64,000 bases of DNA from Candidatus Eiseniibacteriota bacterium (GTDB lineage Bacteria; Arandabacterota; Arandabacteria; Arandabacterales; Arandabacteraceae): positions 64,001 through 128,000 of the forward strand of contig JBDRNT010000161.1 of NCBI GenBank assembly GCA_043810925.1, given 5' to 3'. The notes beneath the pieces are model-generated. The model did no database searches. It had not been told where the DNA came from and saw only the letters and a program-made list of their open reading frames with translations. This document shows positions 42,033 to 62,958 of the stretch, in pieces. Both the position numbers and the translations under genes were made by a program. Each line of letters opens with the position of its first letter. The first letter of the stretch is position 1.

Positions 42033-42650
42033 TCACCTGAACATGTGTTTGATCGAACCCCAGGTCGTGGGGGCCGTGGCTTGCTCCTTCGGGAGACAAG
42101 GATTGTGTCCTTTTACACCGAAGACGCCTGCGCAGTAGCTCGCATTCGGATAATCCAGGACATAGGGATCAGGGGTGAGTTCACATGCCATTGTGTTGAT
42201 TGCGCCTGCGAGCGGGTGCGGCACGACACAGACCATCCCCGGAGTGTCAACCGTGATCCAGCCCCATCCGGGCACACAAATGCTGTAGGGCTGACACTCG
42301 TTCCAGATCTGGGTGATTCCGTCACCGGACCATACGATATCGCCCAGGTGGCCATCATCGCAGTCGCTGAACACGCAGCTGTATGACCCAGGCCACTCGA
42401 CAGCATATTCGACGGCACGGTAGTCGACCAGATTGAAAAACACTGGAAAGAAATCGATGTCGACGCCTCCGACGTACGTGGTCAGGATCTCTTCACACGA
42501 ATCGAGTACCGGGAACTTGCGGGTGCAGGCCCTGTTACAGTCATACGGCATGAGATGGACCGCAACCTTGGCATTCTCATTACCAACCGCGAGCAGGCCG
42601 GTGGCTGCGAGCAGGATAAGGCAGACCAACACGATAATCGCCCTTGCCAT
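42033..42650 (-). CDS. Secreted Cys-rich protein with C-terminal TWGxIK motif
   Basis: Signal peptide; one copy of the domain found twice in the neighbour; ends PTTWGSIKHMFR. Confidence 0.85.
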   Translation of the reverse strand: MARAIIVLVCLILLAATGLLAVGNENAKVAVHLMPYDCNRACTRKFPVLDSCEEILTTYVGGVDIDFFPVFFNLVDYRAVEYAVEWPGSYSCVFSDCDDGHLGDIVWSGDGITQIWNECQPYSICVPGWGWITVDTPGMVCVVPHPLAGAINTMACELTPDPYVLDYPNASYCAGVFGVKGHNPCLPKEQATAPTTWGSIKHMFR

Positions 42651-42799
42651 TCCGATCACCCCTTTTCACAGACAAGCGGATCTGATATCGTTTGTTCTGA
42701 ACAATAGTACCCGTACTCATCGTGGTTGCCTCATTGCTTCCTGTGTATAGGTTACCAAAGACATGCCCAGCCGTCAAGATACTCATTGGCCGGCTGCGA

Positions 42800-45382
42800 T
42801 CACCTGAACATTGCCTTGATGCCACCCCAGGTCGTGGGCTCGACCCGGGTGGGCACGCAGGGATCATCCCCAACGGCCCCGGCTAGCCCGGCACAGAAGC
42901 TGTACGACGGAGAGCCCGCCCCACCGCTACAATCCCCTATCGTTATGCTGCCTGTTTGAGGATGCCCGACGATGTAAACCAGACAGGGACTGTCCACGGT
43001 AAGCCATGCCCAGCCCGGGACAGCCACCGGCCCCGGCTGGCATCCGGTCCATGCATGGGATACTCCATCATTTGGATACGTTATGCCACCTATTGTGAGA
43101 TCGCTACAACTTGTGAAAACACAACTGGACTGGCCCGACCAGGTAACCCCATACTCAAACCCCTGATACTCCATGAGATCGAAGAACACGGGAAACACAT
43201 CGGCGTCACCGGAATCTGTCATATAGGTTATGTCCGTGCAGATCTGAATTGCGGGAAAACTTTTTGAACACGATCTTGACGCGTGGGGTTCCACATGAAC
43301 CGCAACCTTCCCATTGGGGTTCGCATGCCCACCGCAGACCGCAGTGTATCGAGTTACGCTCTTTGTACCGGTTTCGTCGCAGGTTATCTCACAGGTATTG
43401 CCTATCGTAGACCAAGAAGGCGTGTTCGGCTTGACCCTCGCAGTCAACCTCACACTCCCGCCCGCCCCACCGGGCAACGCGCCGATTCCCCAGGTGACCG
43501 TACGGGCCCCTGCGTTGTATACACCGCCTCCCGTCGCAGATATGAAATCGGTTTGTGCCGGAACATGGTCGACAATGTTCACATTGTGCACCTCAGAGGT
43601 GTTGGCTGAATTGTTGTAGGAGATAGTGTACATGACACTCTGTCCGGCGACGACGCAAGAACCTCCAAATGGATCGGTCTTGCTCAGGCCGAGTGGTGCA
43701 AAACTGCCTTGACAGACCCCAACACTGTCACGGGCTACCGTAACCGGTGTTTCATCACAGGTTATCCGGCAGGTGTTCACCAGTATCTCGCCCGGCGAAG
43801 CATCTGAACCCACCGCCACCGTCAACTCAACGGAATCGACGAGCCCGCCGGACACTGTGCCGAGATCCCAGACAACGCTGTGGCTGCCGGCCTGGTGTGT
43901 TCCGCCGTGTGAGCATGATACGTAATCCATGTGCGAGGGAACCTCGTCGGTCAGAGTAGCGTTATGGACTTCGGACATGTTCGGGGTGTTATCGTAGATG
44001 ATGGTGTAGGTGATACTGTCCCCGGAATCCAGACAGAAGCCATCGAGTCCATCACTCTTTGAGAGAATCAACGGGGCGAATCCCGCCGGACAAACATCGG
44101 CGTATTCGGTTACCTCGGTTGGAGGGGCTTCATCGCTTGTGATCTCACAGGTGTTGACCAGCACCATCCCGGGTGTTGTCGCGGGGGGGACATGCACCAA
44201 GACACCTACGGCGCCCCCGCCACCAGCAGGAAGCGTACCTATGCCCCAGGCTATCGTGTGGCCGCCGGGATCGTATATACCGCCGTGTGTCGAGGAGACA
44301 AACTCAGTCTCAGGAGGCAGGACGTCGGTTATGGCGACGTTGTGTACGTCGGCTTCGTTCGAAGTATTATCGTAGTCTATCACATAGGCGATGTTCATAC
44401 CTGCGTCTACGCACCCGCCACCGAGCCCATCGCCCTTACTGAGGTTGAGCGGCGCAAATTCAGGACAGACATCTGTATATTCGGTCACCTCAGTTGAAGG
44501 TGTCTCGCCGCTTGTGATCTCACAGATGTTGGCCAACGTGGTCGCGGGCGCAGTGCTCTCATCCACAGACACCGTAATTTCAAACACTCCTGAACCTCCG
44601 GCCGGGACTGTTCCGACATTCCAGGTGACAGTGTGCGTTCCCGGATCATAGTCACCACCACCTGATGCCGACACGAGCTCTACCTCCGGTGGCAGGCGAT
44701 CAGTGACAATCGTATTGTGCACGTCCCAACTGTTAGGCGAGTTGTCATAGGACAGGGTGTAATTGATACTGTCACCAGGTAACACGCAGTATCCCCCAAG
44801 ACCGTCTGTCTTATCGAGATCAAGCGCCACGAAGACCGGGTCGCATGGCATATCGCCGGTCTCGCCACACACACCCGCACAATAAACTGCAGCCGCCTCG
44901 TCAAGGCCGCCGGTGCAATCTCCAACGTTGATCCCACCTGCCCCCGGATGTGCGATTATGCACACCGAACCGTGGCTAAATCCCCCGATCCATCCCCAAC
45001 CCATCACAACCACAGGACCCATCTGGCAGGTGCTCCAAGCATGCGAGATTCCGTCGCCCGGATTCACGATGTCGCCGATCTTAAGATCGCTGCAGCTTGT
45101 GAAACTGCAACTCTCATACCCGGGCCACACGATGCCGTATTCGATCCCCTGGTACTCGACAAGATCAAAGAAGACCGGAAAGATATCTATCTCATCACAT
45201 CCCGCGTACGTGGTCACGATATGTCCGCAGCCGGGGATCTCCGGGAAGTTTCCGCTGCAGGTTCGCCCCGCGTCGTGCGGAAGCACATGAACAGCCGTCT
45301 TGACAGTCGGATTCTGGCCTGCAGAGCCAGGCAATGCCAGTATCAGCGCAAGGCCGACGGTCGCCGCCAGCAGCCTGAACAT
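42800..45382 (-). CDS. Secreted protein: Cys-rich domain, four DUF11-like Ig repeats, second Cys-rich domain, TWGxIK tail
   Basis: Signal peptide MFRLLAAT...; 4x L.L.K.D...Y.I.Y.N...VHN..I.D..P...GG.Y....V.W; ends EPTTWGGIKAMFR. Confidence 0.88.
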   Translation of the reverse strand: MFRLLAATVGLALILALPGSAGQNPTVKTAVHVLPHDAGRTCSGNFPEIPGCGHIVTTYAGCDEIDIFPVFFDLVEYQGIEYGIVWPGYESCSFTSCSDLKIGDIVNPGDGISHAWSTCQMGPVVVMGWGWIGGFSHGSVCIIAHPGAGGINVGDCTGGLDEAAAVYCAGVCGETGDMPCDPVFVALDLDKTDGLGGYCVLPGDSINYTLSYDNSPNSWDVHNTIVTDRLPPEVELVSASGGGDYDPGTHTVTWNVGTVPAGGSGVFEITVSVDESTAPATTLANICEITSGETPSTEVTEYTDVCPEFAPLNLSKGDGLGGGCVDAGMNIAYVIDYDNTSNEADVHNVAITDVLPPETEFVSSTHGGIYDPGGHTIAWGIGTLPAGGGGAVGVLVHVPPATTPGMVLVNTCEITSDEAPPTEVTEYADVCPAGFAPLILSKSDGLDGFCLDSGDSITYTIIYDNTPNMSEVHNATLTDEVPSHMDYVSCSHGGTHQAGSHSVVWDLGTVSGGLVDSVELTVAVGSDASPGEILVNTCRITCDETPVTVARDSVGVCQGSFAPLGLSKTDPFGGSCVVAGQSVMYTISYNNSANTSEVHNVNIVDHVPAQTDFISATGGGVYNAGARTVTWGIGALPGGAGGSVRLTARVKPNTPSWSTIGNTCEITCDETGTKSVTRYTAVCGGHANPNGKVAVHVEPHASRSCSKSFPAIQICTDITYMTDSGDADVFPVFFDLMEYQGFEYGVTWSGQSSCVFTSCSDLTIGGITYPNDGVSHAWTGCQPGPVAVPGWAWLTVDSPCLVYIVGHPQTGSITIGDCSGGAGSPSYSFCAGLAGAVGDDPCVPTRVEPTTWGGIKAMFR

Positions 45383-45451
45383 GCTAGCTACACCTCTCGC
45401 AGTACATAGAAGGAATCCCATGTGACTCGCCCTCGCTCTCGATCCGTGCGG

Positions 45452-45480
45452 ATTATAGCATACCGTGAGGGCTTCATCAA
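45452..45480 (-). promoter_or_regulatory. sigma70-type promoter
   Basis: TTGATG-N17-TATAAT with extended -10 TG. Confidence 0.65.
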
Positions 45481-45540
45481 GAACTTCCCAGATCAATTGC
45501 AGGAGAAGTCGATGCCGGTGTCGCAGAATCGCAGTTGGAT

Positions 45541-45565
45541 CGTCGGGGGTGGAGCCCCGCGCTAC
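45541..45565 (-). repeat. REP-like GTAG-type palindrome
   Basis: GTAGCGCGGGGCTCCACCCCCGACG, similar to 39628-39653. Confidence 0.55.
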
Positions 45566-47865
45566 ATCTCTTTCAGGAATACCTCACTGAGGAAACTGCA
45601 GACATCTCTATAGAGCGTGCGTGCCAGGGCGGGTGGTTTCCCTTTCTGAAGAACGGCGCCAAGTACGTACTCAGAGTAGCGGAATGAATCGACGGCAACA
45701 GCTACAACACCTGCTTCTACACTTGTTGCAGCGACAGCCGTATTTCCGCTGCCGTCCACTTTGATCACCCGTCCTCCGTGGATTCGAAGTCTGGCGGAAG
45801 CGTCGGGGATGGCGGTATCCCTCAGATCAGAGTCGACATATACCATCATTCCGAACTGCCCGAGCACCTCATTTGCAGTCGATCGCTCATTCAACACACT
45901 GTCGAGAACAAGAAGCCTTCCACCGTTCCTTACATATGTAGTGAGGCAATCCAGCTCCTCTTCACTGAACTCGCTGCATGGCTCAGTCAGGACAGCACCG
46001 CGTGGAACGATGTGGTTGATATCAGCAACATCACCTGTTGTCGGATACATACCGATCCTCTGGGCACAGAGGTAGAACTGCTCGAAGCCCCGGTGACCCC
46101 GCTGCCGGGCGAGGCCGAGATAGTCAAAGAGCGTCGCATTGGTGTGGCCGGTGTCAAAGAAGAGCGTTGGTGAAGCGGCTGCTTCAGGGAGCGGCCCGTG
46201 AAGCCTCCCGTTAAGATGACCTACGGCGGCGGTTCCGACTACGAGACCCACACACGCTCCTGCGCAAAGCAGACCGAACCCGCCCGGCACTCGCTTCAAA
46301 CTCCAGAGTGACAGCGCGCTGAGGATTCCGAAAGCCGTCAGGATGACGGGACGCACCCAGGGGTACCTTGTACCCTCACGATTGAGATAGTCCATGAAAC
46401 CCAGGATCAGCTCGCGTCTGCCCGGTGCGAAAACGCAGAAGTTGGAAAAGCATGTGCTGTCTGTAAATAGGAGGACCCGGCCACGACCGAAACGTCTTGA
46501 ACACGCTTGAAGGAATAGGCCGAACCGGTCGCGCAGATCATAAGCAATGTTGCCGAAGAAGTTGGGATGTCCGTAGTCAACATCCTCGCTCCCAAGTCCG
46601 CAACCTATCATAACCGGCTCGGTATGGAGATCCCCCACGACCGTGCAGGATGTAAGAAACTCAAACTCATCCAGTCCACGGAGCGATGGATGGAAAACTG
46701 CACGCGGGCGCTTGAAAGTCGAGAACCCGGTCGTAGCAAGTTCGAAACTGTCGTCATAGCGAAATTCCATCCCGAAGCGCTGTCCTATGGGATTTAAGAA
46801 ATCTGTCATACCGAAGAGATTCGTGTGATCTCCGATCAGGAGAAGACCTCCGCCCGCCCGGACGAATTCGGCGATTGTCTCCACCTCTTCATCTGTGAAT
46901 GGCTCTGTCGGTGTCTTGATGACGAGCACGTCAACACTATCAAGCAGCGACTGTGAGATCCCGCCCGTATCGCTATCGACATCGTAGAAATGAGACAGGT
47001 AGTCCACGAGGCAGTAGTAGTTGTACTCAGCCCTGATCCCAAGTGATGTCGTATCAAACGGTGTCGCGGTCCATTCCCAGTTCGAGTGGGCTTCATCCAC
47101 CACGACCCGTCCTTGCTTTGCATTGCCCGGATCGGCATAGCCAAGCACACTGGCGAGGCAACTTCCGGCGAGCGTGGCGGTCAGCACGGACATCACCACG
47201 TGTCTCCAGCCACCCTGAAGCAAGCGTGGGATTTCGAGACGATCCGGAGGACGCAACACTAGAGCAAGTGGCAGCCAGGACATGACCGAAACAGCAGGAT
47301 CCCACAGAAGACCCACCCTGCCCCACTCTATGGCGATTGCGACAAGGACGACAAACCGCATGACCGAGTAGAGCAGGATGATACCCAGGTTTGCGGGTAG
47401 TCGACGAGCACTGCGGGAGGATCGCGAAAGCACAGTCAAAGCAATAAGTGCGATCACTATGTACCAGATCTCATAAAGCCCGAAACCCTCGAACGTGAGT
47501 CTCACCGTCTCAAGACCCCTGCCGGTCCAGAAGGTAAGAAGACTTTCTGTTGAACCTGCCCCCGGGACGAGATTAGCCGCGACCGGGCCCAGCGCCTGCG
47601 AAACCGGTATATCGTGCAGACGCCATGCGATTTGTCTGAGCGTGAGGGTAGATGCCCCGCACATGGCGACGACAATGACAGCGACGGGTAGAGATCGACG
47701 CAACCGCCTTACGGCGGTTATAAAGAGGGCCGCCGCGCAGACGACGAGCACGGCGGCGAGTCCGATCATCGGAGGAGTCACAAGGTGTTCACCCACCCGC
47801 CATCCCAGCCCTACGAGGACGACAAAAAGCGAAATCCTAATACCCGGAAACGATCTCATGTTCAT
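45562..47865 (-). CDS. Polytopic membrane protein with two DUF4350/GIFT(GldG/IFT52)-like domains
   Basis: ~7 TM, then VVVDEAH...FVRAGGGLLLIGDHT...GRVLLFTDS; 2 TM; second domain LFFDTGH...YVRNGGRLLVLD. Confidence 0.75.
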   Translation of the reverse strand: MNMRSFPGIRISLFVVLVGLGWRVGEHLVTPPMIGLAAVLVVCAAALFITAVRRLRRSLPVAVIVVAMCGASTLTLRQIAWRLHDIPVSQALGPVAANLVPGAGSTESLLTFWTGRGLETVRLTFEGFGLYEIWYIVIALIALTVLSRSSRSARRLPANLGIILLYSVMRFVVLVAIAIEWGRVGLLWDPAVSVMSWLPLALVLRPPDRLEIPRLLQGGWRHVVMSVLTATLAGSCLASVLGYADPGNAKQGRVVVDEAHSNWEWTATPFDTTSLGIRAEYNYYCLVDYLSHFYDVDSDTGGISQSLLDSVDVLVIKTPTEPFTDEEVETIAEFVRAGGGLLLIGDHTNLFGMTDFLNPIGQRFGMEFRYDDSFELATTGFSTFKRPRAVFHPSLRGLDEFEFLTSCTVVGDLHTEPVMIGCGLGSEDVDYGHPNFFGNIAYDLRDRFGLFLQACSRRFGRGRVLLFTDSTCFSNFCVFAPGRRELILGFMDYLNREGTRYPWVRPVILTAFGILSALSLWSLKRVPGGFGLLCAGACVGLVVGTAAVGHLNGRLHGPLPEAAASPTLFFDTGHTNATLFDYLGLARQRGHRGFEQFYLCAQRIGMYPTTGDVADINHIVPRGAVLTEPCSEFSEEELDCLTTYVRNGGRLLVLDSVLNERSTANEVLGQFGMMVYVDSDLRDTAIPDASARLRIHGGRVIKVDGSGNTAVAATSVEAGVVAVAVDSFRYSEYVLGAVLQKGKPPALARTLYRDVCSFLSEVFLKEM

Positions 47866-50086
47866 GCCTGTCTCTTAAGTTTCCCACCAGATCGAGAACA
47901 AAGCGGGTATTTTCCGGAGTGCCCTTAAACTCGCTCTCAAGGCTTTCATCCAGAAACAGTTTTCCGTCACCTATGACGGTGACGGTGCCAAGACCCATCT
48001 CCATCTTCACAATTGTCGGGTAACCAAGAGTTGTTGCGAGTACTGAGGTATCAGCCTCACCGCCGTATGACACCCACCAGGCGTCTTTGTGTCTGACGCG
48101 TGAACCCGCGTCACCGCCACCCAGTGGGACGGGTTCTACCGAAAAACCCAGGTCGGATAACAGGCCGGGACAATGCCCGGGTGATCGATACCCCTGGCAG
48201 ATAATCAGATTCCCACCATCGCTTGTGTAGTCGAGTAGCCATGACGTCTCCCGGTGGGACGGATTCCGCGTCGGGTTCACAATAAAGAGGTAAGCTGCAT
48301 TCCGGGTCCACTCATTGCTTGTGAGGCTCGGAGCCGCCGAGACCCCGGCCCGTGCGAGACAGTTTGCCAGTCCACCGAGTGAGGTTGCTGAAAAGAGTTC
48401 GAGTCTTGCCTCGGGCCTGAGTGAAAAATCGATTACCGCCTTATCATAGTCGAAACCCCCGTACGGAGCTTCGGAAACGCCGGGGCCAATCCGCTGTTCG
48501 CCCCCGGCAAGCCACGCGATCGTTTCCTCGACCAGATTACGTGATAAGAACAGAGCGACATTCTGAAAGGGCGAGGTGTCCCCGAACGTGACAACTCGAC
48601 CCTTGCCTATCGACTGGCCGGCCACGAGCACCAGATCTCCGACACGCTCTGTTGCCTCGTGCCGGCCGTTTCCCATGTGAGCACCCATCCCCGCATTCGA
48701 GTAATCGCCGGCATCGGAGAAACCATACCGCCCCACAACAAGCGGGAATGCTGGCTCTTCGATCTCAAGCGATGCGCCGACTGCCGTCTGGAGCATGACA
48801 GCATCGTGGGCGCCGCGCGTAGTCTCGTGTGCCCTTGTCTTGAGGCAACCATGCCAGTGCTTGCGCAGTGGTACCGCTGAATCGAAGTTGAATCGTATCC
48901 CCGTAAAGGAGAGCAGCGTGTTCAAGGGGTCCCTTGAACCGCCGATGTCGGTGTGATCTCCCAGAACAAGGAGTCCGCCGCCTGAGGTGACGAAATCTCC
49001 AAGTGCCGATACCTCCCCGTCTGTCAGGCTGGTTGTCGGGTTAATGAACGTGATCACACCGACGCGGCTCAGATCATGACCACCAAGGGAGTCAATCAGG
49101 ATCACCTCACCACCGGTTTCCCGTACACGGCGCTCAAGCGATTCTCTGAAGAGTCCGAACATGCCCGAGCTCACAAGCCCCAGTTTCTCGTTATCCGGTA
49201 GTCTCCAGTCTAGCATTCCCCTTGAGTAGAGGGCGAAGGATGGTCTCGACGGACAAGCCCCGGTCGGGCTGGCTGGGATATCGGCCGGACGTAAGCCGAA
49301 CGCGAGGATCGCGACTGTCGATGCTCCGGTAAGCCACAGGTGCTTTAACATACACCGCCGCTCCGGTCTCGTGGCGCTCCCGAGTTCCACGCTCGCGACC
49401 ACCGCCGAAACAAAGGCCACCGAAGCCAGCTGATGAATCGAAATGTGGTGCGCCCCGATGGATTCCAGCATCGACAGTACTACCTTCCCGACCGGGTAAC
49501 CTGCACATAGAATCAGAAGGCCTGTGACGACCCGGTGCCGGTGAGCCCCTGTGATCGATGTTACGGCTAAAACGAGACCCCCCAGCACATAGACCGGAAG
49601 ACTTGAGGCCCATACACCTATAGATGTCTTCGAGACATCGGTGAAATTGCAGGCGCTCCGGGTTATGTACCAGAGCCGGGGGCTTTGCTCGTACCAGGTA
49701 AGAAGACCCGCGAAGGCCAGAGTCGCAAGATGGAAACGGAGCCAGCGCGATCCCGGGTCTGAGCCGCACCCTGCTGCCGGGCAACACTCCACGAGATGGA
49801 TCAGGGCAAACAGCCATGAAAGTCCCAGCAGGCGGTGTGCGCCCGAGTCAAGTCTGAAGATTGTGTGTGCTGCTACGGCAAGCAGGGCAACAGCTACCGG
49901 CCTGACGAACCTCTTCCCGTTCCCGGGATGAGGCAGGCTCGTGACAATTGCCAGACACGCAAGAAAACCCAGGAGCGACCCGCACCAGTCTGACAAGATA
50001 AGGATGGACCCCGAAGCGAGCATCACAGCTGCAATGGCCAGGAAGTTCTGGATCCAGCCCGGAAAGTTTCTCGACACCGGTGTCAC
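47837..50086 (-). CDS. Polytopic membrane protein with two DUF4350/GIFT-like domains (paralog of neighbour)
   Basis: ~9 TM, then FVTSGGGLLVLGDHT...GRVVTFGDTSPFQN; second domain YTSDGGNLII...GTVTVIGD. Confidence 0.75.
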   Translation of the reverse strand: MTPVSRNFPGWIQNFLAIAAVMLASGSILILSDWCGSLLGFLACLAIVTSLPHPGNGKRFVRPVAVALLAVAAHTIFRLDSGAHRLLGLSWLFALIHLVECCPAAGCGSDPGSRWLRFHLATLAFAGLLTWYEQSPRLWYITRSACNFTDVSKTSIGVWASSLPVYVLGGLVLAVTSITGAHRHRVVTGLLILCAGYPVGKVVLSMLESIGAHHISIHQLASVAFVSAVVASVELGSATRPERRCMLKHLWLTGASTVAILAFGLRPADIPASPTGACPSRPSFALYSRGMLDWRLPDNEKLGLVSSGMFGLFRESLERRVRETGGEVILIDSLGGHDLSRVGVITFINPTTSLTDGEVSALGDFVTSGGGLLVLGDHTDIGGSRDPLNTLLSFTGIRFNFDSAVPLRKHWHGCLKTRAHETTRGAHDAVMLQTAVGASLEIEEPAFPLVVGRYGFSDAGDYSNAGMGAHMGNGRHEATERVGDLVLVAGQSIGKGRVVTFGDTSPFQNVALFLSRNLVEETIAWLAGGEQRIGPGVSEAPYGGFDYDKAVIDFSLRPEARLELFSATSLGGLANCLARAGVSAAPSLTSNEWTRNAAYLFIVNPTRNPSHRETSWLLDYTSDGGNLIICQGYRSPGHCPGLLSDLGFSVEPVPLGGGDAGSRVRHKDAWWVSYGGEADTSVLATTLGYPTIVKMEMGLGTVTVIGDGKLFLDESLESEFKGTPENTRFVLDLVGNLRDRHEHEIVSGY

Positions 50087-50091
50087 TCTTC

Positions 50092-50403
50092 TTACACCTC
50101 ATCCCGGGGATCGCATTGCTTCTGCCGTTGCACGGTGCGGATCATCCGGACCTGACTCACGAACCAGTAGATGAGCGACGCCGGCGCCAAGAGCAACCAT
50201 AACCGGTACTCCAACTGGGTCTTCACCTTAAACACCACGAGACCTGCGGCCACTGCAAGTAGCAGGGTGAGTGTTGCTGTGGTGGGACTAACAGCTCTTG
50301 TGCGCTCTCCCCTTGAGCGCCTCCAGGCCATCAAGGATCCCAGGATGCCGCCCGCTACGCCCGTGCCTATTCCGATTATGATCCACAGCGAGTCTGGATT
50401 CAT
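50092..50403 (-). CDS. Small 3-TM membrane protein
   Basis: Three hydrophobic helices, GGAGG SD, tight operon spacing. Confidence 0.7.
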   Translation of the reverse strand: MNPDSLWIIIGIGTGVAGGILGSLMAWRRSRGERTRAVSPTTATLTLLLAVAAGLVVFKVKTQLEYRLWLLLAPASLIYWFVSQVRMIRTVQRQKQCDPRDEV

Positions 50404-50434
50404 GCCGTCCACCTCCCAGCATGCATGAGGTACC

Positions 50435-50917
50435 CTACATCTCCGGGCAGTAACAAAGTGTGTAGCTTAAGCCCCCGGGACCGGGGTCACTCGGGTTTGT
50501 CGGATCGCCACCGATGCCGCAGGCTCTTTCACAAAGTGTGGCCCCGTAGCAGGCCGACCCCGCGCAGACACTCGCGACGCAAGCACTACCTGCGCACAGA
50601 CTCGATGCGCAGGCGCTGCCGACGCACGTACTGCCCACACAACCGCTGCCCACACAACCGCTCCCGAAACAGAGACTTCCAATGCAGTAGCTCCCCACAC
50701 AGAGGCTCCCCAGGCAGTAACTGACTGGACTGAGACTGCACGGCCACCAGTTCGGATCCTCCTCCCCGGGACCATGGGGCACAGCACCAGTCTCCCAGTC
50801 GGCTAATGTCTCATCCAGTCTTGCATGAAAGAGTGGGCTGACCGGTTTGCCGGCAAGCGCCGGCAGAGAGATCGTAACGACCAGGCAGCACACAAGCAGG
50901 ACCGTGATTCGCATCAT
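50435..50917 (-). CDS. Secreted Cys/Ser-rich pentapeptide-repeat protein, (C-x-G-S-x)12
   Basis: Signal peptide ending ALA; 12 tandem pentamers at 50537-50716; GGAGG SD. Confidence 0.85.
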   Translation of the reverse strand: MMRITVLLVCCLVVTISLPALAGKPVSPLFHARLDETLADWETGAVPHGPGEEDPNWWPCSLSPVSYCLGSLCVGSYCIGSLCFGSGCVGSGCVGSTCVGSACASSLCAGSACVASVCAGSACYGATLCERACGIGGDPTNPSDPGPGGLSYTLCYCPEM

Positions 50918-50990
50918 CACAACCACCTCCCCACATCTTCACGTTCCCTATGTCCGTCTCACAGCTCTACCACTGGGGATGTTATTGCAA

Positions 50991-53852
50991 TTAGTGTGCC
51001 GCTCCGACTTCTTCCCTGATTTCCCCGACTTCGATCTCGACTGCGTGGATGATGCTTTCGAGATCCATCTTGTCGACGACACGTAGGAATGCGTCGACAA
51101 CCCTCGGGTCGAATTGGCTGCCTGAACAGCGTTCGATTTCCTCGATGGCTCCCGCCATGGTTCGCTTGCGCTTGTACCATCTGTCGTGGATCATGGCGTC
51201 AAAGGAATCAGCCACGCAGAGGATGCGTGCACCGATCGGAATGTCGTCTCCACTCAGAGCATGCGGATAACCGAGTCCATCGTATCGCTCGTGATGATAC
51301 CGGATCATCTCCGCCACCTGCATCGATGAACCCGCGCACGAAGCGATCTCGGCACTTACATCGGGGTGGGTACGTTTGTATTCCTCTTCTTCGTACTCAT
51401 CCAGCCTTGCCGGCTTTCGAAGGACCTGGTTCGGCCACGAGACCTTACCGAGATCGTGACGAATCGCGGCCTCCTCTATTCTCTCGACGAAAGGCTCGCG
51501 CTTGCCCATCTCCCGGGCTATGGCCACTCCGATCTCGACCACACTCGCTGAATGGCCGCCCGTGTAGCGATCCTTCTCATCGACGGCCTTCGCGATCGCC
51601 CTTATGAGGCTATCCTGAGCTCTGAGGAGTTCATGCCGCCTGAGAAGCGCAAGATGACGCCAGAGCGTCGGGAAGAGGAAGAGCGGCAGCGCCGACCACA
51701 GCCCAAGCAGATTGTTACCGACGAGTATGGCATAACCGCATACGGCATATGTGAGAGGTTCCGGGAAGACTTTGAGATAGTTGCGCTGCCAGAGACGTGC
51801 CGTAGAGATTCCATCACGCGAAAGAAGCGCTGACTGGACGATAGTCTCCATCGCGTAGAAGACCCCCGTCGCAAGGACAAACGGGATCAACTGGGCCGCC
51901 GTTGCCTCAAGACCGAGCGTATCGGAAGCGTGGGTTCCAAACCGGTACACCAGCCAGGCGCCGCAACCCGCCAGCATGAGCACAAAGCCGTAGGCCGATG
52001 CAGTGGAAAGCCGGGCCCCCAGGGCTTTGCTCTTGATGACGCTGGTTATCCCTCCATTGCTATGGTCCCCGCTGACAATATAACCTGTGTCGGTATCTCC
52101 CCGGGCATGCTGACCGTTGCTACCATTGGCAGCTCCGTTAATCACTCCCACGGACGATGACAGGGCACGCTTGGGATCGAGCAGCATCGCCCAGCCTATC
52201 GCTGCAAATCCGAACATGACCGCATAGAGAGGGCCGCCGGCAAGCGACATCACGAGCACAACAGCAGACGAGGACGAAACATATGCGCCCCACGGGAGCC
52301 TGACAGGCTTAAGCGCTGCTAGTCCGAGCAAGAGCATGAAGAACAGGCTCCCCGCGGGGCTGCATGTGATCCGACTGGATACGAACCCGAGCGATCCGGA
52401 TATACTCAGATTGGTGAAGACAAGTAGTACTACCGCAGCCATTGCTACCATGCACGATCCGAGCACCATCGACCGTCGGTGTTTTCGATCACGGGGCAGC
52501 ACCAGAATGGGTTTGGTCTTGCCCTTATACAGACGTTGCTTGATATGCCGTCTGGATGGCGGGCCGAAACCCTTTGCGGCCTTGGCGGCAAGATCGTCCC
52601 TTCCCATCATCTCGAAGAGGAAGTAGACCACGGTTGCGTCAAGCGAATAGCCCTGGGCACGCGCGATCTCATCAAGGGCCTGGTCTTTCGAAAAGACCCG
52701 CCTGCGATGAGGGCGCTCGCTCGTCAGAGCAACATAAGCCTCCGCGACTTTGATAATTGCGGCCTCAAGCGGGATGTCATCGCCTTTGATACCCCTGGGA
52801 TAACCGGTCCCGTCGGGGCTCTCATGATGGCAACGTACGATGCCCGCGACCGGGCCCATTCCCACGACTTCTCTCAGAATCCGCATGCCGCTCTCGGGGT
52901 GCTCCTTTATCTCGTTCATCTCGTCTTCATTGAGCAAGGAACGCTTGAGCACCGTATCCCTGTCCACGGCGATATAGCCTACATTGTGGAGCATTGCGGC
53001 CTGCTCAAGCAGTTCGAAACTCCGGTAGGGCAGCCTCATCTTATGTGCAAGGGCGACGGAGAGCTCCACCACGCGCCGCGTTTCACCTTTGAGATGAGGC
53101 ATGTTGCCGTCCCGGGCGAGACGCAGTGCATCCACGAGGTGAACCACGGATGATTTGATGCGCACGTGATCACGCACCGTCAGGATGCCGATCAGGCCGA
53201 TCCCGACCAATATGCCAATGAGGAGAAATCCACCCTCAAGAAAGAACAGAGCAAGCAGGTACGCCCCGAGCGGCGTGCTCCAGGACACCAGCGCCCCCCA
53301 CCCGAAATTCGCGCGCCACACTTCGAAGGGATTCCGGCCATCGCGCAACCAGATCGCTGTGGAGAGCACGACGGTAGTTGTCGAAAAATACGCTGCATGA
53401 GCAGCTATAAGTCTCAGGAAGACCCCACGGTCCATTCCGGCACTGATAGCCCCCGTTTCAAGACTTGGGCCCCAAAGTATGTACCCCGCAGCAAGTAGGC
53501 AAAAAGCATGTTTCGCCGAATTGACGAGTACACGCTGGACATCCGCTCCAGGGCTTCGAGTGCGAGATGAGAGAGTGGCTATAATCCCGATTAGCCAGCT
53601 CGCAATGACAGAAGCACCCGTTCCGTACAGGACCAGCATCGTGATTAGCGGCAACGGACTGATATTCAGCGCACCGACGCCTGCCATTCCCCTAACTGGG
53701 AGAACTATGACCACGACAGCAAGAGCAAGCCAGAGAATGGCGCTGGGGGAATCACGGAATGTGCTGAGTGCACTTGGTAAGATGGGGATGACGACTGCGG
53801 TAGCGGCAAACCCCAAGACCAATGCGAATATCCAAAACTTCTTGTTGGTCAA
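50991..53852 (-). CDS. Double [membrane sensor + HD-GYP] protein; first HD-GYP degenerate, second intact (putative cyclic-dinucleotide phosphodiesterase)
   Basis: Domain 1 LHNVG/HHE..GYP/VAEAY; domain 2 GHS/RHDLGK/HHERYDGLGYP/VADSFDAM; each preceded by a multi-TM block; TTG 53852 after GAGGAGG. Confidence 0.88.
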   Translation of the reverse strand: MTNKKFWIFALVLGFAATAVVIPILPSALSTFRDSPSAILWLALAVVVIVLPVRGMAGVGALNISPLPLITMLVLYGTGASVIASWLIGIIATLSSRTRSPGADVQRVLVNSAKHAFCLLAAGYILWGPSLETGAISAGMDRGVFLRLIAAHAAYFSTTTVVLSTAIWLRDGRNPFEVWRANFGWGALVSWSTPLGAYLLALFFLEGGFLLIGILVGIGLIGILTVRDHVRIKSSVVHLVDALRLARDGNMPHLKGETRRVVELSVALAHKMRLPYRSFELLEQAAMLHNVGYIAVDRDTVLKRSLLNEDEMNEIKEHPESGMRILREVVGMGPVAGIVRCHHESPDGTGYPRGIKGDDIPLEAAIIKVAEAYVALTSERPHRRRVFSKDQALDEIARAQGYSLDATVVYFLFEMMGRDDLAAKAAKGFGPPSRRHIKQRLYKGKTKPILVLPRDRKHRRSMVLGSCMVAMAAVVLLVFTNLSISGSLGFVSSRITCSPAGSLFFMLLLGLAALKPVRLPWGAYVSSSSAVVLVMSLAGGPLYAVMFGFAAIGWAMLLDPKRALSSSVGVINGAANGSNGQHARGDTDTGYIVSGDHSNGGITSVIKSKALGARLSTASAYGFVLMLAGCGAWLVYRFGTHASDTLGLEATAAQLIPFVLATGVFYAMETIVQSALLSRDGISTARLWQRNYLKVFPEPLTYAVCGYAILVGNNLLGLWSALPLFLFPTLWRHLALLRRHELLRAQDSLIRAIAKAVDEKDRYTGGHSASVVEIGVAIAREMGKREPFVERIEEAAIRHDLGKVSWPNQVLRKPARLDEYEEEEYKRTHPDVSAEIASCAGSSMQVAEMIRYHHERYDGLGYPHALSGDDIPIGARILCVADSFDAMIHDRWYKRKRTMAGAIEEIERCSGSQFDPRVVDAFLRVVDKMDLESIIHAVEIEVGEIREEVGAAH

Positions 53853-53898
53853 CCAGACTCCTCCTCGGACTATGCACAACTTGCCGGTGAAAGGATAC

Positions 53899-53913
53899 GC
53901 AAGCTATGTGCCA
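53899..53913 (-). promoter_or_regulatory. sigma54 (-24/-12) promoter
   Basis: TGGCACATAGCTTGC, near consensus, 46 nt upstream of the HD-GYP start. Confidence 0.75.
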
Positions 53914-54001
53914 GGATGCGGTATTCAGCTCGGGTTAACTGCTTGCCCGCAAAGGGATTGCCGACTGCAAATCGGGGGACAAACGAAGAACGGGCCTCAG
54001 C

Positions 54002-54030
54002 CCGTTGCAAAATGCGAAAACCGTTGCAAA
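54002..54030. promoter_or_regulatory. Candidate enhancer (bEBP) sites
   Basis: Direct repeat CCGTTGCAAA at 54002 and 54021, about 90-120 bp upstream of the sigma54 site. Confidence 0.45.
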
Positions 54031-54032
54031 TA

Positions 54033-54060
54033 GCAAAAAGGCGCTAGAGCGCCTCCTTGC
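54033..54060 (-). terminator. Intrinsic terminator after the small peptide gene
   Basis: AGGCGC-TCTA-GCGCCT followed by TTTT on minus strand. Confidence 0.7.
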
Positions 54061-54091
54061 AGAACAGTTCTTACTTCTGGGCTACCCTAGA

Positions 54092-54151
54092 CTAGAGTTC
54101 ACCATCCCAGAAGCCCAGCCAAACGATAATCCAACTGATAAATCCTAACAT
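54092..54151 (-). CDS. 19-aa hydrophobic Trp-rich peptide MLGFISWIIVWLGFWDGEL
   Basis: AAGGAGG SD 8 nt before ATG; own promoter and terminator; below the ORF-track size cutoff. Confidence 0.7.
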   Translation of the reverse strand: MLGFISWIIVWLGFWDGEL

Positions 54152-54190
54152 CTTCGGATCCTCCTTACTGTACTTCTTGCGCGCAACAGT

Positions 54191-54219
54191 AGTGTATCAA
54201 CTTCCTTGGTTTATGTCAA
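54191..54219 (-). promoter_or_regulatory. sigma70 promoter for the small peptide gene
   Basis: TTGACA-N17-TACACT with extended -10 TG. Confidence 0.75.
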
Positions 54220-54449: not shown

Positions 54450-57400
54450 TCAGTTCAACCAGTCGCGACAGAGGAGCTCGGCTTGCTCCAGAACCGTATG
54501 CGTCGCCTTCTCCTGTTTGTCGGGCGGATAGCCGTACTTGCGTAGGACTCGCTTCACCATGATCCTCAGTTTCGCGCGGCTGCTCTCCTTGAGTGTCCAA
54601 TCTATGGAGACATTCTTCCGGACAGTCTCTACAAGCTCCCGGGCAATCGTCAGCAGTACTTTATCACCCAGCACCTTAACGGCACTATCATTCGTCTCAA
54701 GGGCGTCATAAAACGCTATCTCTTCATCCGTTAGACCTAGATCCTCACCCCGGCGGCTTGCCTCCCGCATCTCTTTCGCAAGAGCGATCAACTGCTCAAT
54801 GACCTGGGATGTCTCAATTGCACGGTTCTGGTACGCGCGAATCGAACGCTCCAGCATCTCCGCAAATGACCGTGACTGTACAAGATTCTTGCGTGCGCGC
54901 GTCTTGATCTCATTATTGAGTAGCTTCCGCAGGAGTTCGATCGCCAGGTTCTTCTGCGGAAGGCTTCGAACATCAGCGAGGAATTCCTCCGACAAGATCG
55001 AGATGTCCGGTTTCTTCAGCCCCGCCTCTGCAAAGATGTCGACCACCTGGTCAGATGCTATTGCCTTGGATACAAGCTGGCGGACTGCCTGTTCAAGGAT
55101 CTCTTCCGGTTTCTGTGTCACCGTAGCCGCTTTCGCCAGGGCGGCACGAACAGTCTGGAAAAAGGCCACGTCATCACGTATCTTCGCAGTTTTCTCATGC
55201 GGAACAGATAGGGCGAAGGCCTGAGAAAGCTCGGTCACGAACTTAAGGCACCTGTCCTTGCCCCCCTCCTGAGCAAGGATATGCTCCTGTGCTGCCGGGA
55301 GCAGCGTCAGCCGCTCCACAGGAGTTCCCATCTTCCAGAGCGACCAGTCGAAGCCATGGAAGAGATCACAGCATATCTCGTATTTCTCAAGCATGACGGC
55401 CACCGCCTCCGCCTGGTCGATCGCGGTGCTGCCCCTGCCCCCGCTCTCGGTATAATGGGCGAGGGCCTGCCTGAGGTTGTCTGCAAGTCCCAGGTAGTCC
55501 ACGACCAGCCCACCGGGTTTATCAAGGAAGACCCGATTCACCCTTGCGATCGCCTGCATCAGGCCATGTCTTCGCATGGGCTTATCGACATACATTGTGT
55601 GGAGACAGGGAGCATTGAATCCCGTGAGCCACATGTCACGGACAATCACGATCTTCATGGAATCGTCCGGATCTCTGAATCGATCGGCCAGCTTCTCCCG
55701 GCGCGCCTTGTTTCGAATATGCTGCTGCCACTCAAGCGGGTCCGAGGCGGAACCAGTCATCACTACTTTAATAGCCCCCTGTGTATCATCTTCAGTGTGC
55801 CAGGCGGGCCGCAGCCTCACGATCGCATCGTAGAGATCAACACATATACGGCGGCTCATGCAAACCACCATTGCCTTCCCATCCATGACCTCAAGCCGCC
55901 CCTCGAAGTGATCGATAAGGTCCTGTGCAATGAGCCTGATTCGTTTCTCGGTGCCTACCACTGCTTCCAGTGCAGCCCACTTCGTCTTGAGCCTCTCCCT
56001 GCGTTCAACCTCTTCCCCCTCGGTTATCTCCTCGAATTCCTCATCGAGATGGGGCTTTTCGGTTTCCTTGAGTTCAAGCTTCGCAAGCCGACTTTCGTAG
56101 TAGATGGGCACAGTGGCGCCATCCTCAACAGCCCGTTGTATATCATAGATGTTGATGTAATCACCGAAGACGGCTCTGGTGTTCTTATCTCTAAGCTCTA
56201 TTGGAGTCCCCGTAAACCCAATGAACGAGGCATTCGGAAGAGCATCGCGCATGTGTCGGGCGAACCCGTCGATGAAGTCGTACTGGCTCCGATGGGCCTC
56301 GTCGGCGATGACTACTATGTTGCTCCGATCCGAGAGCCTGGGGAAAGCATCACGCCTTTGCTCAGGGAGAAACTTCTGGATGGTCGTAAACACGACTCCT
56401 CCCGAGGCTACCTTGAGAAGTTCACGAAGTTCGGCACGATCAGCAGCCTGGACGGGCTTCTGACGTAAGATTTCATGGCAGCCACAGAAGGTGTCGAACA
56501 ACTGGTCGTCGAGATCGTTGCGATCGGTTATTACTACTACTGTTGGATTCTCCATCGCCGGGTGGAGGATAATCCGCCCGGCATAGAAAGCCATCGTGAG
56601 GCTCTTACCCGATCCCTGAGTGTGCCAGATGACACCTGCCCGCCTGTCGGCAACCCGATAGGCAGCCCGTGCCTCAGCCGCAATGATGGCTTCGTCCCGT
56701 TGCCCGTGTAGCGATACTGACCCAGCCACGCCTTCCGAGACTCCGCAGGCTCGAAGTGTGGATTCGACCGCCAGGTTGACCGCATGGAATTGATGGTAAC
56801 CGGCTGTCTTCTTGACGGGCAGCCCCCCGGCTTCTTCTTCAAACACAATGAAGTACCTGAAAAGATCAAGCAGGCGCTGCTTGTTGAACATCCCCTTGAT
56901 GAGCACTTCAAGCCGCGGCATAGAGACCGGAGCCACATCTTCCCCCTCGATTGTCCGCCAGGGGAGATACCACTCCCTGTTCGCCGTAAGCGAACCGAAA
57001 CGAGCCTCGAGGCCATCCGAGACGACGAGCACTTCGTTAAAGCCGAAGAGTGAGGGGATCTCCTGCTTATATGTCTGAAGCTGTTTGAGTGCAGTCCAGA
57101 TAGTGGCGTTCTCATCAGCTGGGTTTTTAAGTTCAATGGTTACAATAGGAAACCCGTTGAGGAAGAGCACGATGTCCGGGCGCCGGTTGTGCCGGTCTTC
57201 GATAACCGTAAATTGGTTGACGGCCAGCCAGTCGTTGTTGTTGGCATCCTCAAAGTCTACGAGCGTCGCCTTGTCGTGGACGATCCGGCCATCGGATCGA
57301 TACTCCACATCGATACTGTTTACGAGCATTCTGTGAAAGGTGCGGTTGTTCTGGATGAGTGAGGCTGACTCCGCGCGTGTGACCTTGCGAAAGGCCTCAT

Positions 57401-57602
57401 CAAGTGCCGCTGCCGGGATCTCTGGGTTCAGGCGAGCAAGCGCATCCTTAAGCCTAGTGGGAAGAAACGGCTCCTCGTAGCTCTCCCGCTCGGCCAGAAG
57501 CTCCCCTGGGGCAATCTCCGGACCATGAAGGATGGAGTATCCCAGGCTTTCAAGCCATGAGAGGGCCGCCTCCTCAACCGTTGATTCCCATAGATGGCTC
57601 AC
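54450..57602 (-). CDS. hsdR: Type I restriction enzyme subunit R
   Basis: RPDIVLF..IELK nuclease, [34 protein letters not shown]. Confidence 0.96.
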
Positions 57603-58309
57603 GGAGTGACCCCAACGTAAATGGTATGTATCCGAAATTTCTTCTTCTTGGCGCTGTCAAGCCCAAGCACGCTGTCTTGCATCTCCAACGCCTCTTTCCA
57701 ACCGTCTCGTTCCTTGGGACAGTCTGCATGCGGGTTCGTGTCGCCGCAGAAATATATGTAGAGAAGACACGCTGGGACTCCCTGGTATTCTAGGAAATGC
57801 AGCACCGCAAGGCGATTTGCGTATTGATAGTACTCCTTCAGCCAGTCGCGTGGCACCTCGATGCCTACTGCCTGCTGTGTTTGGTGGAGGGCCTTCTCAA
57901 TAGTCTCAAGTGAGCGAGGAGATTCAGCGCTGCAGCGACTCTTGAGCTCTCCTATATGAGCCTTTGCCTCCACCAGAAGCCAACGATCGACGCTATCACT
58001 TCGAATGCGGCCGACTGCATCCCAGTTGGGAGCGTTGCCGGTCTGGGGCCAGAAGGACTTCCATGCTGTGAAAACATCAGCGCATCGCTCCTGGCTCAGA
58101 AAATCTATGCCGGTGATCTCCTTATCAGGCAGCTTTATCTTAGTGGCATCTGCCGGATCGTACTTGCCGCTGTGTTTGAAATCCTTCCATTCGATTACCT
58201 GCCCACCAGTCTCTTGTTCGATCATCGTGTTCAGTTCGTTGCGGTAGCGTCCCATCCACCGCATCAGGTGAAACTCACTCCCATATCCGGCCCCAATGTG
58301 CGTGCTCAT
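57599..58309 (-). CDS. Hypothetical protein, putative PD-(D/E)xK nuclease fold
   Basis: WDAVG...LLVEAK spacing; stop overlaps the hsdR start (GTGA); start uncertain. Confidence 0.65.
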
Positions 58310-58313
58310 AGAA

Positions 58314-59528: not shown

Positions 59529-59697
59529 AGCCGATGTCCTCCAGGTTTGCCCAGACGATCTCGTCCCGATACAGCCACTTGGCAGGGACCCGGGTATCAC
59601 TTCTACAACTGGCCGCAGCCAAACTCCTTCAGCTTGGCCCAGACAGCCCTACGATGCAAGTTCCTCCTCGGCCATCCCTTTATCAGCGTGCGCGGTA

Positions 59698-60900: not shown

Positions 60901-61144
60901 GATCCACCTCCTCGCCATCGTACCCTTCCCATGCACTTGATGCTCCAGATCGGAATCTCAAGCCGCTGCCCCACAATAAAATGTCCCACAGTCTGTGGGA
61001 CATTCTCCCAGCCCGATTCGCCAACAGGCCCATAGATACTCCCCACCCAGTCCAACAGGCAGTCGGAGTCTCAATCTACCCTCTAATTGTGCACGCAGTG
61101 GGTGCACTTTCCGCTCTGGGCAATCCCCGCACACCGGCTTCTCC

Positions 61145-62719: not shown

Positions 62720-62727
62720 ATCCCGCC

Positions 62728-62958
62728 TCAATGACTGTCTACCAGGGACAACTTGAGCTTCCCTCGCCTGGCCATCCGCATGCAGAAACTGTCAAGCTGT
62801 GCCCTTGCCAGTTTGGACGGCTTGAACTGACCGTTCTCCCACCGGTTCACGCTTGCGAAGCTTACACCTAACTCACGAGCGAGATCCTCCTGGCTGAGGC
62901 CGAGTTGACTACGGATCTCCTTCAGTAGCGCAGGGTAGTCCATTTCTCCTGGTGTCAT
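62728..62958 (-). CDS. XRE-family HTH regulator (possible controller of the RM operon)
   Basis: [32 protein letters not shown]; directly upstream of hsdM. Confidence 0.88.

Follow-up and report, generated by a model that had tools for sequence, protein, structure and literature searches.

A candidate envelope module of paired GIFT-domain membrane proteins and a secreted client with an N-terminal SPLF helix in Arandabacterota and beyond

We analyzed a stretch of 64,000 nucleotides (referred to as the window; positions 64,001 to 128,000 of contig JBDRNT010000161.1, assembly GCA_043810925.1) from Candidatus Eiseniibacteriota bacterium, a member of the phylum Arandabacterota, and focused on a cassette on its minus strand that encodes a secreted Cys-every-fifth protein (the client), a small transmembrane (TM) protein, and two paralogous membrane proteins with GIFT/DUF4350 domains (GIFT_A and GIFT_B). 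We hold with moderate confidence that the client and the two GIFT proteins represent a three-part envelope module, of which the client contributes an N-terminal helix with the SPLF motif and GIFT_A and GIFT_B would form a heterodimeric platform for it. The outward-facing or membrane domains of the platform would bind the SPLF helix of a single cognate client, and the platform would hold the client on the outer face of the cytoplasmic membrane, process it, or pass it on. In the window, the client would be the Cys-every-fifth protein, and the small protein with two or three TM helices would be an extra, lineage-specific part. In this lineage, the cassette usually stands behind a sigma-54 promoter together with a gene for a double HD-GYP protein, which is in turn always preceded by a peptide gene that is probably transcribed separately.

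An earlier note on this DNA, made from the sequence alone, had described a minus-strand block composed of a 19-codon open reading frame (ORF), a sigma-54 promoter, and five close-packed genes with one overlap, and all of these elements were found in that order (Table 1). The gaps separating the HD-GYP, client, small TM protein, and GIFT_A genes are 64, 22, and 5 nt, respectively, and GIFT_A and GIFT_B overlap by 29 nt. As the same order recurs in related genomes and metagenome contigs, we regard that the block is not a product of chance. The source genome (G000) is a 3.85-Mb assembly of 185 contigs, and its phylum was represented by 18 genomes in the comparison set.

Among the 18 genomes, GIFT_B was always accompanied by an adjacent GIFT_A. 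Cys-repeat clients were detected in 13 of them, directly upstream of the GIFT pair wherever the contigs allow (G000, G001, G005, G008, G010, and G013, as well as loci L175, L177, and L178), and the tie between a Cys-repeat protein and two GIFT/DUF4350 proteins that the earlier note had drawn is borne out. The five genomes in which the client was missing comprise G007 and G011, with marginal GIFT matches (E = 3.7e-4 and 9e-4), G012, which is 57% complete, and G016 and G017, which possess only a second GIFT pair about 33% identical to the first. Where contigs permit, the type-1 order is client, small TM protein, GIFT_A, and GIFT_B; a counterpart of the small TM protein was present between the client and GIFT_A in all five type-1 genome loci inspected (L013, L014, L018, L021, and L023) and also in L177. 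The cassette with the second, about 33%-identical pair (type 2) has its own upstream secreted protein with TCD-type Cys repeats, in which the hydrophobic N-terminus is followed by the same motif as in the Cys-every-fifth protein (SPAFxAxLDEAIARLEG as compared to SPLFHARLDETLADWE).

The GIFT pair is not confined to this phylum. By a profile search of 1.84 billion representatives, with clusters defined at 50% identity, the GIFT_B family was found to number 5029 proteins at a threshold of E <= 0.001, of which 2404 were retained at E <= 1e-10 and 1053 at E <= 1e-30, and all of the 150 best matches had E <= 1.5e-196, mostly over nearly the whole profile. These relatives are annotated as hypothetical or DUF4350 only, and the names of their sources include Eisenbacteria, Acidobacteriota, Desulfobacteraceae, Latescibacterota, Phycisphaerae, and Limnocylindria, among others. 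We then scanned metagenome contigs and obtained 80 GIFT-pair loci. Of the 69 loci with upstream sequence, 68 have GIFT_A immediately before GIFT_B, and the two genes overlap by exactly 4 nt in 37 of the 68, which suggests translational coupling.

We regarded as client neighbours the ORFs with a hydrophobic N-terminus and an SPLF-type motif within 2.5 kb up- or downstream of the pair, and took at least 800 nt on both sides as full flanks. With both flanks available, 26 of 37 loci had such a neighbour, and with one flank or more, 39 of 62 did, as opposed to 3 of the 1098 ORFs located farther away. A small motif HMM added clients to those detected by the strict pattern (e.g., in L193, L241, L246, and L252). 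The part shared by the clients consists of an N-terminal signal peptide or signal anchor and, within about 5-12 residues behind it, an amphipathic helix of the form SP(L/A)(F/Y)xxxLxxx(I/L)xxL. Behind this helix, the bodies of the clients are highly variable, often built of short Cys-rich repeats, and unrelated to one another. They include repeats of the CxGSx, TSCP, TCD, and STC types (7-17% Cys), some large proteins that reach about 1300 aa and, in one clade, sequences of about 220 aa in which Cys is nearly absent. Since the N-terminal module is the sole part conserved across otherwise unrelated clients, we propose that it serves as a recognition signal.

The neighbours of the clade with the Cys-poor clients are archaeal, namely the genes for deoxyhypusine synthase, an MBF1-like helix-turn-helix protein, DUF7121, and DUF1614, and the recurrence of such housekeeping genes is attributable to the shared ancestry of a single archaeal clade. 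In 18 loci of this clade (L209 8314-9375, L223 12917-13975, L211 2608-3786, and 15 more), the SPLF protein is followed by a secreted protein of about 350-390 aa that matches no Pfam family and may be a fourth component there. Clustering of the neighbours within 5 kb in the 80 loci retrieved no recurrent ATPase, ATP-binding cassette (ABC), vWA, or maturase gene.

The client in the window bears 12 cysteines, from C71 to C126, in a strict five-residue register. What the earlier note had called a secreted (CxGSx)12 protein thus retains its signal peptide and its register, but the repeats amount to 11 units, nine of which are exactly CxGSx, rather than 12. When the mature part was shuffled 20000 times, 11 units were never reached. 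Putative signal-peptide cleavage sites of the A-x-A type were seen by eye in the clients, and the AlphaFold model of the client is confident only for two helices, the N-terminal TM helix at residues 3-24 and the SPLF helix at 31-45. When G000 was searched with the motif HMM, exactly one SPLF ORF was found, namely the Cys-every-fifth protein (E = 7.5e-9; the next best match had E of about 1), from which we take it that there is one client per pair. Such a one-to-one relation is more in line with a dedicated partner than with a general pathway. As for the Cys ladder, we can offer guesses, i.e., disulfide cross-linking or the binding of metal or sulfide.

The earlier note had also considered a RiPP-like substrate, i.e., the precursor of a ribosomally synthesized and post-translationally modified peptide, and the Cys-every-fifth protein could in principle be a precursor of the CefA kind that is matured by the products of neighbouring genes. 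The protein does match the CefA model NF038108 weakly (E = 0.045), but the score of 13.7 bits is below the cut-off of 30 bits, the protein starts with a signal peptide of the Sec type and is 163 residues long whereas the model has 65 positions, there is no adjacent gene for a radical-SAM enzyme or another maturase, and sister modules have clients devoid of Cys repeats. We therefore regard this reading as scarcely credible. Membership in the pentapeptide-repeat proteins was rejected as well, as no Pfam family was matched at E <= 0.1 and the repeats were modelled at a pLDDT of 33-38 with no defined fold; the source annotation of one distant relative reads 'YjbI with pentapeptide repeats'.

Some additional Cys-repeat proteins were encountered. 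Two different Cys-every-fifth proteins with the SPLF motif (P0018 and P0039; longest contig 13292 nt each) may share one metagenome contig, and the Cys-repeat proteins of a Polyangium (P0032) and a member of Planctomycetota (P0036) have extra C-terminal domains. The genomes of Polyangiales and Planctomycetes checked for client relatives yielded repeat noise only. A search of genome contigs for a four-unit CxG(S)x pattern returned at least 120 stretches; the matches listed were 15-nt simple repeats, mostly out of frame, with no family member among them.

Both GIFT_A and GIFT_B exceed the Pfam gathering scores of families in the GIFT superfamily (Table 1), in accord with the two paralogous DUF4350/GIFT-like membrane proteins of the earlier note. 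GIFT_B was modelled with a pLDDT of 93.2 and a pTM of 0.93, and the flavodoxin-like, GATase1-like fold of GIFT was recovered. The model comprises seven N-terminal TM helices with a beta-hairpin at residues 103-122, GIFT domain 1 at 253-495, a TM hairpin at 504-556, and GIFT-like domain 2 at 567-735. The residues most conserved in the family lie in GIFT domain 1, in the motifs GDHTN(L/V)FG and DSTxFSNF, both of which are recognisable in GIFT_A too. Structure predictions of GIFT_B with residues 1-70 of the client gave scores of 0.18, 0.32, and 0.08 against a mark of 0.32.

Several points weigh against the three-part module as we draw it. At one metagenome locus (L231; 3767-6241), GIFT_B stands without GIFT_A despite 3.7 kb of upstream sequence. 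By the strict pattern, 11 of the 37 fully flanked loci have no SPLF neighbour; some of the clients were regained with the motif HMM, which found none in L190, L200, L206, L213, L218, L225, L249, L253, and L254. The position of both GIFT domains of GIFT_B outside the cytoplasm would follow from the basic loops at residues 52-57, 147-156, and 203-219, to which the positive-inside rule was applied by eye, and co-transcription of the block is likewise deduced from gene spacing. The modelled client repeats adopt no defined fold at the low pLDDT given above. Finally, we know of no established biochemical activity of GIFT domains, and for this reason 'platform' is a weak statement in terms of mechanism. 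As a separate observation, a 97-aa Cys-rich ORF of doubtful reality is located directly before GIFT_B in L231.

The GIFT domains invite comparison with known proteins. One reading is that the GIFT proteins are auxiliary subunits of an ABC transporter encoded elsewhere, as GldG is with GldA and GldF in the GldAFG transporter of gliding motility. GldG and the ABC_transp_aux family share with our proteins a GIFT-type domain, which in our proteins is predicted to face outward, with the GD..F.N-type motif that is typical of GldG; GIFT_B scores above the ABC_transp_aux cut-off (Table 1) and matches GldG weakly at 22.3 bits. That score is, however, far below the equivalog cut-off of 389.85 bits (TIGR03521), the GIFT domain is fused to a seven-TM domain so that the protein carries its own 7+2 TM helices, and no ABC ATPase or permease gene was found among the window neighbours or recurrently within 5 kb in the 80 loci. 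We consider this reading very unlikely. IFT52 and the oligosaccharyltransferase subunit OST48/Wbp1, eukaryotic proteins with GIFT domains, act in other complexes, have no sortase-like membrane domain, and are 13-20% identical to the proteins studied here.

The nearest published prediction is the archaeal complex of arCOG01314 (DUF4350) with a MoxR ATPase and a vWA protein, for which a role in secretion or membrane remodelling was predicted (Makarova et al., 2015; PMC5898192), and it differs from the module in architecture and partners. The arCOG01314 proteins carry a signal peptide and a single TM helix at the C-terminus, and the genes for an AAA+ protein (COG0714) and a vWA protein are adjacent (PMC5898192). 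In both cases a DUF4350/GldG-like extracellular domain is encoded together with secreted or surface proteins, the secretion role of the archaeal complex being predicted from such context (PMC5898192). In contrast to that complex, the module combines an SPLF client with two paralogues whose N-terminal domains are polytopic, and no AAA+ or vWA gene was detected among the window neighbours or recurrently in the 80 loci. GSU0208 of Geobacter, listed as a DUF4350 protein of the inner membrane (PMC7726332), may be a further member of the GIFT family described here.

The polytopic N-terminal domains provide a further lead. They may belong to a divergent branch of the exosortase/archaeosortase superfamily and cleave or transfer the client at the SPLF signal, a reading that we consider rather unlikely and nonetheless worth following. 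In a structure search of the ESM Atlas, residues 11-210 of GIFT_B matched two 'putative Thaumarchaeosortase' clusters with TM scores of 0.56 (182 residues) and 0.53 (177 residues); 31% and 70% of the members of these clusters have PF09721 (Exosortase_EpsH). For the N-terminal domain of GIFT_A, the best feature match in the Atlas was 0.75. We compared profiles locally by hhalign with 35 collected exosortases. The N-terminal domain of GIFT_A aligned with the exosortases over 182 co-linear columns with a probability of 35.5% and a P of 3.9e-4, and that of GIFT_B over 149 columns with 6.7% and 0.0054, as compared to 0.3-0.6%, P of 0.1-0.23, and 4-32 columns for four reversed-alignment controls; the N-terminal domains of GIFT_A and GIFT_B aligned with each other over 53 columns (54.5%; P = 1.2e-4). 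In the alignment, R170 of GIFT_B, invariant in all 66 sequences, falls on the exosortase Arg, and the beta-hairpin and helix start of GIFT_B fall on the exosortase CSG motif. The SPLF signal can also be read as the mirror image of the tripartite PEP-CTERM signal (charged end, TM helix, and motif). Exosortases are generally paired or fused with a periplasmic domain and encoded beside their clients, and this arrangement was seen in the exosortase loci that we inspected.

The same comparisons speak against a sortase-like reading. The exosortase Cys corresponds to F125 of GIFT_B, beside E126 (97% conserved); among the 66 sequences of the GIFT_B N-terminal domain, the share of Cys stays below 30% in every column, and GIFT_A has no Cys at the position of the exosortase Cys either and also lacks the exosortase Arg. 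The hhalign probabilities are low, the signal is N-terminal, and there is one client per genome. PF09721 matched neither GIFT_A nor GIFT_B at E <= 0.1 and nothing in G000, and in a Pfam scan of 62 N-terminal domains at E <= 10 it appeared weakly in two (best E = 0.012), no better than unrelated TM families. PDB searches gave no match to the membrane domain, that part of the 767-residue model being barely covered. A C-terminal tripartite signal (motif, TM helix, and basic tail) on the clients was ruled out, as the motif follows an N-terminal hydrophobic helix. Like the EpsH/XrtA-PEP-CTERM and ArtA-PGF-CTERM systems, the module has a polytopic membrane protein encoded beside its clients, a periplasmic accessory domain, and otherwise unrelated clients to which a short motif next to a TM helix is common. 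Unlike those systems, it has two paralogous subunits, GIFT domains, one client per genome rather than many, and an N-terminal instead of a C-terminal motif, with neither a catalytic Cys nor a match to the Pfam model. Altogether, the GIFT pair falls outside the exosortase family in its present definition, yet its mode of action may be that of a relative without the cysteine, which we keep as an open lead; its role may be catalytic and sortase-like or purely structural.

Pfam and the NCBIfam release of June 2026 offered no family for the gene set beyond the names of domains, and no published description of the module was found in the literature, supplementary files aside, consistent with the earlier note, which recognised no named system. 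Because memberships in GldG, exosortase, CefA, and pentapeptide-repeat families all failed, we place the three-part module apart from the types of system described so far; were it distantly tied to exosortases, it would instead count as a strongly divergent variant of exosortase systems.

The peptide and HD-GYP genes stand apart from this core. The earlier note had taken them as parts of one integrated module, and in its full form this reading has the peptide sensed by the double HD-GYP protein, the turnover of cyclic-di-GMP directly controlling export or anchoring by the GIFT proteins, and all seven elements obligate. The elements are adjacent in the window, a single sigma-54 promoter precedes the HD-GYP gene and the cassette in G000, G001, G008, G013, and L178, the short ORF for the peptide (sORF) is linked to the HD-GYP gene in nine loci, which is compatible with peptide sensing, and a second sigma-54 promoter with similar boxes precedes REC-GGDEF and GAF histidine-kinase genes (see below for the details). 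On the other hand, G005 and G010 have the cassette on one contig, behind its own sigma-54 promoter, and the HD-GYP gene and the sORF on another; G007 and G011 possess the HD-GYP gene but neither a client nor a clear GIFT pair; and only one of the 80 metagenome GIFT-pair loci (L178) has the HD-GYP gene. In addition, the HD-GYP orthologues of G001 (TGA, leaving ORFs of 343 and 539 aa; C138, L013 12678-15325) and G010 (TAG; C361) are interrupted by in-frame stops, which could be pseudogenes, assembly errors, or read-through. We consequently regard the integrated module as quite improbable. Being unlinked from the cassette in one genus and cassette-free in another, the sORF and the HD-GYP gene are a separable regulatory pair outside the core. 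Of the co-recurrence across genomes that the earlier note had put forward, the association of a CxGSx-type client with the GIFT pair holds, but that of the pair with the HD-GYP gene and the sORF does not.

The HD-GYP protein is presumed to be a phosphodiesterase of cyclic-di-GMP in which one of the two domains is degenerate. Its sequence has the motifs of such enzymes, HD for metal binding and GYP: domain 2 is canonical (HDLGK and HHERYDGLGYP), while domain 1 has HNVGY, in which HD is degenerated to HN, and HHESPDGTGYP, and both patterns were seen in the four of four orthologues checked. Translation probably begins at 53855, with a TTG that stands shortly behind GGAGGAG; the orthologues align from residue 10. 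RpfG-type phosphodiesterases share the HD_5 domains and the HD and GYP motifs of domain 2, but the protein here has no receiver domain and a tandem architecture of TM block, HD-GYP, TM block, and HD-GYP; its score against the NCBIfam model for HD-GYP response regulators, 235 bits, is below the cut-off of 400.

The peptide gene is self-contained as the earlier note had stated, with its own promoter, ribosome-binding site (RBS), and terminator hairpin (Table 1). Intact orthologues upstream of an HD-GYP orthologue were found in nine loci, namely the window, G002, G005, G006, G008, G010 (two tandem copies), G013, and L178. They have 17-21 codons and a hydrophobic body, each with its own conserved promoter, RBS, and terminator; the promoter motif AAAAA(T/G)AGCTTGACA is kept in the orthologous loci, and the sole ending that departs from the FWD-plus-acidic type is FWDGIL in G005. 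SHP/Rgg, in which short hydrophobic peptides serve as signals, and MgrB/PhoQ, in which a small membrane protein regulates a sensor, resemble this pair in that a tiny hydrophobic peptide gene with its own promoter stands beside a membrane signalling protein. The acidic C-terminal motif of the peptide is conserved. Its partner here is, in contrast to those systems, an HD-GYP membrane protein. No exporter, receptor family, or processing enzyme for the peptide was identified. The two copies in G010 (L257 1849-1914 and 2246-2311) have separate promoters, and G005 (L256, about 2610) has one clear copy and possibly a second, degenerate one upstream.

The sigma-54 promoter that the earlier note had placed ahead of the five genes is near-consensus, and a GG-N10-GC element was found at the equivalent position in all eight orthologous upstream regions inspected. 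G000 has one RpoN match and 23 Sigma54_activat matches, none of them within the window. Between the terminator and the promoter are three boxes resembling TTGCA-N3-TGCAA, each with one mismatch, with equivalents in the orthologous loci; judged by their sequence and position, they are candidate binding sites for an activator. The perfect palindrome occurs upstream of the sORF promoter in L018, L023, L255, and L258, and it was observed three times in G000 as against 2.6 expected. The locus in the window, which is beside a restriction-modification (R-M) system, lacks the perfect upstream palindrome present in other genomes. A second sigma-54 promoter, TGGCACAGTAGTTGC, with two TTGCA-like boxes 19 nt apart and a mismatch in each, stands in G000 ahead of the genes for a REC-GGDEF protein and a membrane-bound GAF histidine kinase (C163:22037-25246; L265). 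It hints at a common activator for cyclic-di-GMP genes, and L265 and the HD-GYP operon may be parts of one regulon. Another sigma-54-like promoter with upstream boxes (C151 of G000, around 35314, minus strand) has no obvious ORF downstream on its strand and may serve a small RNA or be a chance match.

Table 1. Features of the gene block and its surroundings, with coordinates in the window
Feature	Position	Strand	Remarks
sORF promoter, sigma-70 type	54191..54219	-	-35 TTGACA (54219-54214), 17 nt, -10 TACACT (54196-54191)
sORF RBS	54166-54160	-	AAGGAGG
sORF, 19 aa	54092..54151	-	MLGFISWIIVWLGFWDGEL; hydrophobic, conserved FWD-acidic-hydrophobic C-terminus
Terminator-like hairpin after sORF	54035..54056 (about)	-	GGCGC-TCTA-GCGCC then TTTTT; equivalents in other loci
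Candidate activator boxes	54024-54036, 54005-54017, 53958-53970	-	like TTGCA-N3-TGCAA, one mismatch each
Sigma-54 promoter	53899..53913	-	TGGCACATAGCTTGC
Double HD-GYP membrane protein, 962 aa	50991..53879	-	Pfam HD_5 217.5 bits, two stretches
Client, 163 aa	50435..50926	-	signal peptide, SPLF helix (residues 30-45), Cys repeats, short Cys-containing tail
Small protein with 2-3 TM helices, 106 aa	50092..50412	-	no Pfam or NCBIfam family matched
GIFT_A	47837..50086	-	polytopic N-terminal domain then GIFT/DUF4350 domains, paralogue of GIFT_B; DUF4350 50.5 bits (cut-off 30.4)
GIFT_B	45562..47865	-	ABC_transp_aux 48.3 bits (cut-off 34.7), IFT52_GIFT 40.8 bits (27.2), DUF4350 40.1 bits (30.4)
DUF11-repeat surface protein	42800..45496	-	downstream; Pfam DUF11 127 bits; C-terminal tail TWGxIKxxFR

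The block is flanked by a type I R-M system upstream and the DUF11 surface protein downstream. The R-M system (54450-62731) consists of HsdR, a 240-aa ORF, HsdS, and HsdM, with a gene for a DUF1016/YhcG PD-(D/E)XK nuclease between hsdS and hsdM, and abuts the sORF promoter. The DUF11 gene, separated from the cassette by 65 nt, may be co-transcribed with it; a DUF11 homologue downstream of the cassette was found only in L018, and thus we do not count it as a conserved member of the module. One Cys-containing domain (VHVLPHD...FPVFFDL.EYQG.EYG) is present at both the start and the end of the DUF11 protein and stands alone in a 208-aa neighbour, in a 203-aa protein after the HD-GYP gene of G007 (L260 2740-3351), and in L245 (6389-6994). 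About 55 ORFs of G000 end in a tail of the form (S/T)W(G/S)x(I/V)Kxx(F/Y)(R/K), usually after E/P-S/T-T, including the DUF11 protein and the 208-aa protein (42033-42659) just downstream of the cassette, and the type-2 clients (L015, L016, L017, L234, and L245) end in the same tail. This tail looks like a lineage-wide C-terminal sorting or anchoring signal.

Beyond the three-part module itself, we tentatively entertain a wider possibility, namely a hitherto unrecognised system of bacteria and archaea for sorting or anchoring by an N-terminal signal. A cysteine-less, exosortase-like heterodimer fused to GIFT domains would recognise, and perhaps cleave or transfer, the signal peptide with SPLF helix of one dedicated, hypervariable client and install this client on the envelope, where the Cys ladder might give rise to disulfide-linked or metal/sulfide-binding surface material. 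In the lineage of the window, installation would be switched by sigma-54, the turnover of cyclic-di-GMP, and a tiny hydrophobic peptide. To our knowledge, the dedicated sorting signals of sortases, exosortases, archaeosortases, and rhombosortases have so far been found at C-termini. If true, the module would be a conserved N-terminal counterpart to C-terminal sorting and a new kind of envelope system, and would provide a tractable handle on the role that GIFT/DUF4350/GldG domains play in bacteria, in cilia, and in the oligosaccharyltransferase. The family is not tiny (1053 clusters at E <= 1e-30) and occurs in poorly understood lineages of sediment and the subsurface. Its clients make up a collection of unusual Cys-repeat proteins, whose roles at the surface may be related to metals or redox, and the pair of the sORF and the double HD-GYP gene is a compact candidate for peptide-controlled cyclic-di-GMP signalling.

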